Positions 46,135 through 48,565 of a DNA stretch of 64,000 nucleotides are shown here, piece by piece. Where the stretch lies: NCBI RefSeq assembly GCF_003334335.1, contig NZ_QOWQ01000005.1. One strand, given 5' to 3'. The position numbers were made by a program, and so were the translations under genes. The stretch's first letter is position 1. Each line of letters opens with the position of its first letter. Under the pieces are notes generated by a model. That model was not told the origin of the DNA. It was given only the letters and a program-made list of their open reading frames with translations, and made no database searches. This DNA comes from Escherichia coli (lineage in GTDB: Bacteria; Pseudomonadota; Gammaproteobacteria; Enterobacterales; Enterobacteriaceae).

Positions 46135-47751
46135 ATGCTCAGTCAAATTCAACGCTTTGGCGGCGCGATGTTCACGCCAGTGCTGCTGTTTCCCTTCGCC
46201 GGGATTGTGGTGGGTCTTGCCATCTTGCTGCAAAACCCGATGTTTGTCGGGGAATCACTGACCGATCCGAACAGTTTATTCGCGCAAATCGTACACATTA
46301 TTGAAGAGGGCGGTTGGACGGTATTCCGTAATATGCCGCTGATTTTTGCTGTCGGTTTACCCATTGGCCTTGCTAAGCAAGCGCAGGGGCGTGCTTGTCT
46401 GGCGGTGATGGTGAGTTTCCTGACCTGGAACTATTTCATCAACGCGATGGGAATGACCTGGGGAAGCTACTTCGGCGTCGATTTCACTCAGGACGCGGTG
46501 GCAGGTAGCGGTCTGACAATGATGGCCGGGATTAAAACCCTCGATACCAGCATTATCGGCGCAATTATCATTTCCGGCATTGTGACGGCGCTGCATAACC
46601 GTCTGTTCGATAAAAAACTGCCGGTTTTTCTCGGCATTTTCCAGGGGACGTCTTATGTGGTGATTATCGCCTTCCTGGTGATGATCCCCTGTGCCTGGCT
46701 GACGTTGCTCGGCTGGCCAAAAGTACAAATGGGGATTGAATCTCTGCAAGCGTTCCTGCGTTCGGCGGGTGCACTTGGGGTCTGGGTTTACACCTTCCTC
46801 GAACGTATTCTGATCCCAACCGGTTTACACCACTTCATCTACGGACAGTTTATCTTTGGTCCGGCAGCTGTTGAAGGCGGCATTCAGATGTACTGGGCGC
46901 AGCATCTGCAAGAGTTCAGTTTGAGCGCCGAGCCGCTGAAATCGTTGTTCCCGGAAGGCGGTTTTGCCCTGCACGGTAACTCAAAAATCTTTGGTGCCGT
47001 GGGCATTTCTTTAGCGATGTACTTCACTGCCGCACCGGAAAATCGGGTAAAAGTGGCGGGCTTGCTGATTCCCGCAACCTTAACCGCCATGCTGGTGGGA
47101 ATTACCGAACCGCTGGAATTTACCTTCCTGTTCATTTCACCGTTGCTGTTTGCGGTACACGCCGTGCTGGCGGCCTCAATGTCGACCGTAATGTATCTCT
47201 TTGGTGTGGTGGGCAACATGGGCGGAGGTCTGATTGACCAGGTTTTACCGCAAAACTGGATCCCGATGTTCAGCAACCACGCGGATATGATGCTGACCCA
47301 AATCGCCATTGGGTTGTGCTTTACCCTGCTGTACTTCGTGGTTTTCCGCACACTGATTCTGCAGTTCAACATGTGCACGCCGGGACGTGAAGATGCGGAA
47401 GTGAAACTCTACTCAAAAGCCGAATACAAAGCCTCGCGAGGCCAAACCACCGCGGCAGAGCCAAAAAAAGAGCTGGATCAGGCTGCCGGTATCCTGCAAG
47501 CCCTGGGCGGGGTCGGCAATATCTCCAGCATTAACAATTGCGCGACGCGTTTACGTATTGCACTGCATGACATGTCACAAACGCTGGATGACGAAGTCTT
47601 TAAAAAGCTGGGAGCGCACGGCGTCTTCCGTAGTGGCGATGCCATTCAGGTGATCATTGGTCTGCATGTATCTCAGCTGCGTGAACAGCTCGATAGCTTA
47701 ATTAATTCTCATCAATCAGCAGAAAATGTTGCCATTACGGAGGCAGTATAA
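46135..47751 (+). CDS. glvC: PTS glucose/maltose-family EIICB component (glvC-glvB; continuous 538-codon frame in this sequence)
   Basis: RBS aagagga 7 nt before ATG 46135 ([28 protein letters not shown]…); IIC membrane domain then C-terminal IIB with [17 protein letters not shown] phospho-Cys motif; ORF-track start at 45874 is an in-frame extension without RBS. Confidence 0.8.
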
Positions 47752-48565
47752 TGACCAAATTCTCAGTGGTTGTCGCAGGCGGTGGAAGCACCTTTACGCC
47801 AGGCATCGTGTTGATGCTCCTGGCGAATCAGGACCGTTTCCCGCTTCGTGCACTGAAATTTTATGATAACGATGGTGCGCGGCAGGAAGTGATTGCCGAA
47901 GCCTGTAAAGTCATCCTTAAAGAAAAAGCGCCGGACATTGCGTTTAGTTACACCACCGATCCTGAAGTGGCATTCAGCGACGTTGATTTTGTCATGGCGC
48001 ACATCCGCGTCGGCAAATACCCGATGCGCGAACTGGATGAAAAAATCCCGCTGCGCCACGGCGTTGTTGGTCAGGAAACTTGCGGACCCGGCGGAATAGC
48101 GTACGGCATGCGTTCCATTGGCGGCGTCCTGGAACTGGTGGATTATATGGAAAAATATTCACCAAATGCCTGGATGCTCAACTACTCCAACCCGGCAGCC
48201 ATTGTCGCAGAAGCCACGCGTCGTCTGCGCCCGAATGCGAAAATCCTCAACATCTGTGACATGCCAATCGGTATTGAAAGCCGGATGGCGCAAATTGTTG
48301 GGCTGCAAGATCGCAAACAGATGCGCGTGCGCTACTACGGCCTGAACCACTGGTGGTCGGCGATATCCCGCAGTTTCAGAAAGGGTTAATGAGTCAGCAA
48401 GTGGCGGTGGAAAAACTGGTCGTGGACGCCTGGGAACAGCGTTCATATCAGCACCTGTGGCAGGCGATTACGTTGTCGAAAACGGTACCGAGCGCCTCGG
48501 TCGCCAAAGCTATTCTGGATGAGTTGCTGGAGGCCAACAAAGCGTACTGGCCAGAGTTACGTTAA
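47751..48565 (+). pseudogene. glvG: glvG: GH4-family 6-phospho-glucosidase remnant (frameshifted, probably internally deleted)
   Basis: 212-codon frame with GH4 N-terminus ([18 protein letters not shown]…CDMPIG) stops at 48389; a C-terminal-like segment (…YWPELR) continues in a different frame (48353-48565); 815 nt is too short for a roughly 440-aa GH4 enzyme. Confidence 0.8.

Follow-up and report, generated by a model that had tools for sequence, protein, structure and literature searches.

A 508-bp deletion in glvG beside a continuous glvCB gene: a common allelic state of the Escherichia coli glv operon

The glv operon of Escherichia coli was analysed in a stretch of 64,000 nucleotides (RefSeq assembly GCF_003334335.1, contig NZ_QOWQ01000005.1), which we call the window. 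It lies with yidE on one side and yidL on the other. Our reading, to which we give a probability of about 0.93, is that the hydrolase gene glvG is dead by a 508-bp deletion bounded by a short direct repeat. In the same reading, the permease gene glvCB and the regulator gene yidP are intact, and the allele is one stage of a population-wide loss of the operon. A preliminary description of this DNA had named it a glv phosphotransferase system (PTS) locus. This identity is supported by a match to the profile TIGR02005 and by alignments to AglB, to GlvA and to intact E. coli alleles. No evidence contradicting the identification of the locus or of its genes was found.

The operon consists of three genes. 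They are yidP, encoding a GntR-type regulator, glvCB, encoding an enzyme IICB (EIICB) permease, and glvG, encoding an NAD+/Mn2+-dependent 6-phospho-alpha-glucosidase of glycoside hydrolase family 4 (GH4). Alpha-glucosides such as isomaltose and sucrose isomers of the palatinose type, a range suggested by orthology, would enter through the permease and be phosphorylated by it at O-6 at the expense of PEP. Since it lacks an IIA domain of its own, GlvCB would draw on the general IIA(Glc) as phosphate donor, which its orthology to AglA also suggests. An intact GH4 enzyme would then hydrolyse the resulting 6-phosphates, by orthology to aglA-aglB and glvA-glvC. Because glvG is truncated here, the sequence predicts an operon that cannot complete this pathway or support alpha-glucoside catabolism via this allele.

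The deletion in glvG

The remains of glvG in the window are the following.

47751-48389, plus strand: 5' remnant open reading frame (ORF) of glvG, 212 codons, of which 1-200 are native GH4 sequence, then 12 residues out of frame and a TAA stop
48344-48351, plus strand: deletion junction, with the lone copy of GAACCACT, placed by alignment with intact alleles
48344-48565, plus strand: 3' remnant of glvG, intact codons 368-440 and the stop codon, in another frame and therefore untranslated

The gene starts at 47751. Its ATG overlaps the glvCB stop codon as TAATG, with GGAGG 7 nt upstream. The first frame ends at 48387-48389 after 212 codons, and the GH4 homology picks up in another frame and runs to 48565. 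Alignment to intact alleles bears out this break and resumption, which had been noticed before, and gives the out-of-frame tail as 73 codons (intact 368-440). Against the intact 1323-bp allele of O157:H7 PV15-279, the window gene forms two ungapped blocks and one 508-bp gap. The blocks cover intact nucleotides 1-593 (587/593 identical) and 1102-1323 (222/222 identical), so that nucleotides 594-1101 are missing, with a breakpoint ambiguous over 8 nt. The 508 bp equal 169 codons and 1 nt, hence the frameshift. A gap-free full-length GH4 alignment is thus excluded, and the 508-bp segment is retained in the O157:H7 and other intact alleles. The preliminary estimate of about 160 missing codons was right about an internal deletion; its size, more precisely, is exactly 508 bp.

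Intact glvG has a copy of the 8-bp direct repeat GAACCACT at either end of the segment that the window lacks. Both copies are present in 8/8 intact alleles examined, and the window retains one. Deletion between the repeats would have taken out residues ~201-369 and, through the frameshift, reduced the product to a stub of 212 residues.

Pfam places two domains on the intact allele, the NAD-binding PF02056 at residues 6-184 and the C-terminal PF11975 at 195-415. The NAD+-binding Rossmann domain is preserved in the window, as PF02056 lies wholly before the deletion and a GGGS-type motif is present. Residues 1-205 of the 212-residue ORF align with AglB from Klebsiella pneumoniae (6DUX, E=6e-128) and with GlvA from Bacillus subtilis (1U8X, E=8e-109). 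GlvG C169, D170, H200 and Y263 align with Cys171, Asp172, His202 and Tyr265 of GlvA. In GlvA, these are reported to be Mn2+ ligands (Cys and His), the catalytic acid (Asp) and the catalytic base (Tyr) (Rajan et al. 2004). Cys169, Asp170 and His200 are kept in the remnant, the His200 codon lying within the retained repeat copy. On the other hand, there is no complete in-frame C-terminal domain. Residues ~201-369 are gone, which takes away about three quarters of PF11975 (169 of its 221 residues), Tyr263 included. The earlier statement that the GH4 catalytic core is missing therefore holds for most of the C-terminal domain with Tyr263, but not for the NAD domain nor for the three residues that are kept.

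Judged from its sequence, glvG here is a pseudogene of the GH4 6-phospho-alpha-glucosidase family and not a functional member, and no NAD+/Mn2+-dependent hydrolase activity would be expected from this allele. Public sources name the 212-residue product 'inactive 6-phospho-alpha-glucosidase', and at least 1000 public contigs encode exactly this product. For genomes identical to the window, the Prokaryotic Genome Annotation Pipeline (PGAP) gives two features: a 538-residue protein called 'PTS sugar transporter subunit IIB' and, at the equivalent of 47751-48565, a family-4 glycosyl hydrolase pseudogene marked 'frameshifted'. A glvG pseudogene next to an intact glvCB is, then, an already known, ordinary and common allelic state. 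The strains NCTC9113 and 98208 show an additional Q407* in the out-of-frame 3' remnant (PGAP 'internal stop'), which is further pseudogene decay.

States of the locus among complete genomes

The sample consisted of 5426 complete E. coli genomes. A genome counted as a carrier of the locus if it covered 80% or more of a query of 2.9 kb. The 508-bp glvG deletion, d508 for short, was scored by a 41-mer specific to the junction.

Carriers number 4268. The d508 junction is found in 2617 genomes (~48%), and the 508-bp segment of intact glvG in 1650-1653 (~30%). Since 2617 and 1650 add up to 4267, these two states cover essentially all the carriers. Intact alleles are present in O157:H7, HS, ATCC 8739 and many others. 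About 30% of strains would therefore have a potentially functional alpha-glucoside pathway, of the isomaltose/palatinose type.

Another ~1151 genomes (~21%) match the yidL end only and are without the yidP-glvCBG module. In the uropathogenic strain UPEC129, yidE adjoins yidL, and ~45-90 bp of the yidP 3' end are left. The deletion is of ~3.4 kb, corresponds to ~45213-48589 of the window, and trims the 3' end of yidL too. Because this yidP remnant persists, the absence of the module in UPEC129 is a secondary deletion.

The preliminary description had spoken of a decaying operon. At the population level this is what we find: ~30% intact, ~48% d508, ~21% loss of the module, an amber codon in K-12 and sporadic insertion sequences (IS). 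We read these states as a series of losses, from the intact operon to d508 and then to the K-12 amber in glvC or to IS hits, with deletion of the whole module also occurring, as in UPEC129.

A continuous glvCB gene, split in K-12

The permease gene and its codon of interest are as follows.

46135-47751, plus strand: glvCB, alpha-glucoside-specific PTS EIICB, 538 codons and TAA
47239 (codon 47239-47241), plus strand: glvCB codon 369, CAG (Gln369) in the window and TAG (amber) in K-12

The frame of glvCB is uninterrupted, with 538 codons and zero internal stops. The ORF list, the raw sequence and PGAP in identical genomes agree on it, as the preliminary description had it. The good ribosome-binding site reported there is AGAGGA at 46122-46127, 7 nt ahead of the ATG. 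GlvCB matches TIGR02005 (alpha-glucoside PTS IIBC) with 954.7 bits (cutoff 607.3) and E=9e-288, its residues 2-523 covering profile positions 1-524 of 524. The EIIB domain TIGR00826 falls on residues 410-509, and the GITEP motif of glucose-family IIC on residues 322-326. The phosphorylatable IIB cysteine, also noticed earlier, is Cys469 (TGC at 47539-47541) within NNCATRLR (C-x-T-R-L-R). An IIA domain is absent. The PGAP protein for the intact gene is WP_000952141.1, and the exact 538-residue sequence is present on at least 1000 public contigs.

MG1655 has the same glv locus and the same neighbours (yidE, yidP, yidL and yidK) as the window. Likewise, its glvG (b4556, listed as a pseudogene) is identical to that of the window and has the same 508-bp deletion. 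However, the MG1655 record presents glvC (b3683, 368 residues) and glvB (b3682, 161 residues) as separate genes, whereas the window has one 538-residue EIICB. The two sequences show 1 mismatch in the 2727-bp locus and 2 in 13,001 bp of surroundings. The first is the amber codon. The second is at 50248, in yidK codon 209, where the window has CTG and K-12 has CTA, a synonymous change. With two differences over 13 kb, the window is a natural, very close relative of K-12 and not K-12 itself.

A 41-mer for the TAG allele occurs in 348 of the 5426 genomes (MG1655 and 347 more). Among the matches listed, these are mostly named K-12 laboratory derivatives. Every other glvCB allele examined has an open frame of 538 codons. 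The continuous glvCB is thus the ordinary and ancestral form, which a nonsense mutation specific to the K-12 lineage has split. Since the lost residue is Gln, supE laboratory strains, with their Gln-inserting amber suppressor, could in principle restore wild-type GlvCB.

The separate glvC and glvB of the K-12 reference annotation are also the sole prompt for suspecting that the continuous frame, or the gap in glvG, is a sequencing or assembly error. The chance of this is practically nil. In K-12 the split is due to a genuine TAG codon, which 348 genomes share. Across the 25 kb around the locus, at least 10 complete genomes, all from independent natural isolates, match from end to end and reach the top bit score (100.0% as listed). 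In addition, the junction is in 2617 genomes, and at least 1000 contigs carry the exact 538-residue product and at least 1000 the exact 212-residue one. The population data refute an artefact, and they confirm the frame and the junction to an extent that makes resequencing unneeded.

Origin of the deletion

The glvG remnant of the window and K-12 is what the allele of strain 19-5, which is intact, would give on losing the 508 bp, save for one synonymous difference. A second glvG haplotype, with A300/T312 as its markers, occurs in 1708 genomes. Among the matches listed, it is a pseudogene in 58/60 and intact in 2 (32F4 and APEC37). According to haplotype 41-mers, both haplotypes exist deleted and intact. 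Their differences are nearly all at synonymous sites, which makes the haplotypes older than the deletion.

The repeat at the edges points most likely to a slipped-strand (replication-slippage) or microhomology-mediated deletion, for which boundaries at direct repeats are a classic sign. With d508 on at least two haplotypes, the deletion would either have spread by recombination or have arisen more than once at this 8-bp repeat.

Several observations temper the reading given above. First, two or more glvG 5' haplotypes carry the d508 junction (window 47751-48343 compared with other alleles), and for this reason no simple single origin is established. The repeat is the one piece of evidence behind the slippage mechanism. 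Second, all 4268 carriers span at least 80% of the 2.9-kb query, so the decay is mild. Third, glvCB is well preserved next to the deletion. Its full 538-codon frame was found in 5/5 natural d508 alleles translated (the window, S171-1, NCTC9113, 98208 and I3), and it is annotated as intact in two further d508 genomes, 52F4 and N18-04097. Differences among the 12 glvCB alleles first compared are nearly all synonymous; the window and I3 differ by 20 synonymous changes to 1 non-synonymous. CFS3292, however, has an IS hit in glvCB. It is a 1200-bp IS5-like ISKpn26 in the last ~17 codons (window ~47698-47701), ~50 nt before the stop.

The synonymous excess could be taken as a sign of selection on glvCB after the deletion. 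We rejected this use of pairwise synonymous and non-synonymous counts, because the same glvCB haplotypes also occur with intact glvG. The same protein, WP_000952127.1, is present in d508 and in glvG-intact strains. The synonymous polymorphism is probably older than the deletion or imported by recombination.

The retained transporter

The earlier suggestion that the putative transporter delivers a phosphorylated alpha-glucoside to a dead end is plausible, and depends on expression. A further step would be that an active GlvCB in d508 carriers causes a build-up of alpha-glucoside 6-phosphates and stress, and hence selection for glvCB knock-outs such as the K-12 amber. Accumulation of methyl-alpha-glucoside-6-phosphate is reportedly toxic to K-12 and relieved by AglB. 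glvCB is intact with all its motifs, has a good ribosome-binding site and stands beside an intact regulator. Secondary lesions are also known, namely K-12 Q369*, the IS5-like element of CFS3292 and, in a single draft genome, the loss of 4 bp. Nevertheless, this scenario as a whole seems unlikely. No promoter-like site was found in 45700-48800, and the operon is described as cryptic. The lesions look rare, given the five complete translated alleles, the two annotated as intact and the one IS5 hit, and more knock-outs would be expected among 2617 carriers if the transporter were harmful.

We sought secondary glvCB lesions through a 220-residue ORF. The 4-bp deletion of the draft genome is real and was found in 0 of the 5426 complete E. 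coli genomes. An apparent 2-bp insertion was discarded as an assembly ambiguity (it contains N), and two other candidates as truncations at contig ends. The ISKpn26 of CFS3292 parts glvCB from the glvG remnant. Secondary lesions of glvCB thus look real but sporadic.

Since 48% of E. coli share the junction and at least two haplotypes carry it, d508 could be recurrent or positively selected, with GlvCB, and perhaps the 200-residue NAD-binding stub, kept for a role independent of the hydrolase. We regard this as very unlikely. A closely related proposal is that glvCB (possibly with the NAD-binding stub) is under selection, for example for a substrate processed elsewhere or for signalling or regulation, so that d508 would be a stable adapted state. 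It could appeal to the nearly all synonymous differences among glvCB alleles, to WP_000952127.1 being shared by deleted and intact strains, and to the persistence of the junction. A further point in its favour is that the Keio mutant in glvG has a mild Congo-red phenotype (PMC5745457). However, the synonymous polymorphism is common to glvG-intact strains and has little bearing on selection after the deletion. The transporter is dispensed with by 21% of E. coli and by all K-12 strains, and polarity on yidL may account for the Keio phenotype. We hold this proposal to be highly improbable, and prefer to read d508 as one stage in the loss of the operon.

Downstream, the stop-codon ends of glvG and of the convergent yidL share 4 bp (48562-48565), and no terminator lies between the two genes. 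Because of this overlap, glvG knock-outs could be polar on yidL, and the Congo-red phenotype of the Keio mutant could perhaps be explained that way.

Expression signals

In 45700-48800 we found no sigma-70 consensus-like promoter, where 2.4 would be expected from shuffles, and terminator-like sites are at chance level. The outcome of the promoter scan is consistent with a weak or activator-dependent promoter. The literature describes the K-12 glv genes as cryptic or non-functional. A review of the SOS response lists glvB under 'potential SOS box' (PMC6590174). We searched 45801-48600 for a LexA box. The best match has 8/20 mismatches, and the lone CTG-N10-CAG is at 47962, within glvG; this candidate was rejected.

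Regulators and neighbouring features

The remaining parts of the module are given below.

45123-45839, minus strand: yidP, 238 residues, GntR/HutC-family regulator, divergent and intact (ORF, and PGAP in identical genomes)
45840-46134, no strand: yidP-glvCB intergenic (regulatory) region, containing the glvCB Shine-Dalgarno sequence
48562-49455, minus strand: yidL, convergent AraC-family regulator, boundary of the module (894 nt by PGAP)

YidP matches NCBIfam GntR families with E=7e-43 over residues 2-232, under the equivalog cutoffs. It has the GntR winged-helix and the UTRA effector domain, with PF00392 and PF07702 on the gene in related contigs. The protein, WP_001300779.1, is also found in strains with intact glvG. 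From the position of the gene, YidP is presumed to regulate the glv operon. In strain 1008S19, where glvG is intact, the yidP allele is highly divergent and frameshifted. There the putative repressor is lost and the structural genes are kept.

The yidL gene varies as well. In N18-04097, an IS1A lies inside it. In strain 19-5, an IS200/IS605 tnpA pseudogene and a TnpB gene stand downstream of glvG in place of most of yidL.

Elsewhere in the window, four RNAs scored above the Rfam gathering score, as expected of this chromosomal region.

42250-42322, plus strand: ROSE_2 thermoregulator, upstream of ibpA
56491-56620, plus strand: istR small RNA
26519-26599, minus strand: AsdA, antisense to dnaA mRNA
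32076-32118, minus strand: ES036 small RNA

Significance

Our additions are small: the exact 508-bp lesion with its 8-bp repeat, the frequencies of the alleles and the tracing of the glvC/glvB split to K-12. Textbooks and EcoCyc-style tables give this split as the E. coli state, and it is a K-12-specific amber mutation. The results can serve annotation hygiene, metabolic models of non-K-12 strains and engineering. In itself, the locus is of little importance. The K-12 reference annotation already includes the glvG pseudogene, and in thousands of genomes PGAP calls glvCB as a fused gene.

Comparison with known systems

The aglA-aglB pair from K. pneumoniae is orthologous to glvCB-glvG. Intact E. 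coli GlvG and AglB (PDB 6DUX/6DVV) share 391 of 439 residues (89%) without gaps. The AglA permease belongs to the TIGR02005 subfamily like GlvCB, also lacks IIA, and works with the E. coli IIA(Glc) (PMC5309279). K-12 uses isomaltose only when supplied with K. pneumoniae aglA and aglB or with B. subtilis glvA and glvC (PMC5309279). The Klebsiella pair is functional and gives K-12 growth on isomaltose and sucrose isomers. In contrast, the hydrolase gene of the window is frameshifted and without residues ~201-369.

The glvA (malA)-glvR-glvC (malP) operon from B. subtilis follows the same two-step logic, with a PTS EIICB and then an NAD+/Mn2+-dependent GH4 6-phospho-alpha-glucosidase. GlvG aligns with its GlvA (1U8X) without gaps over residues 3-439 (E=9e-224), the catalytic and metal residues being offset by 2. 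The B. subtilis operon is functional and has GlvR, an RpiR-type protein, as regulator, whereas the E. coli regulator is the GntR-type YidP.

Finally, bgl, asc and chb are operons of a PTS permease and a phospho-glycosidase that are likewise silent in laboratory E. coli. ChbF is a GH4 enzyme too. Structurally, all three are whole, and regulatory mutations can switch them on again. Conversely, the glv allele of the window is not reactivable, because 508 bp of its hydrolase gene are physically missing.

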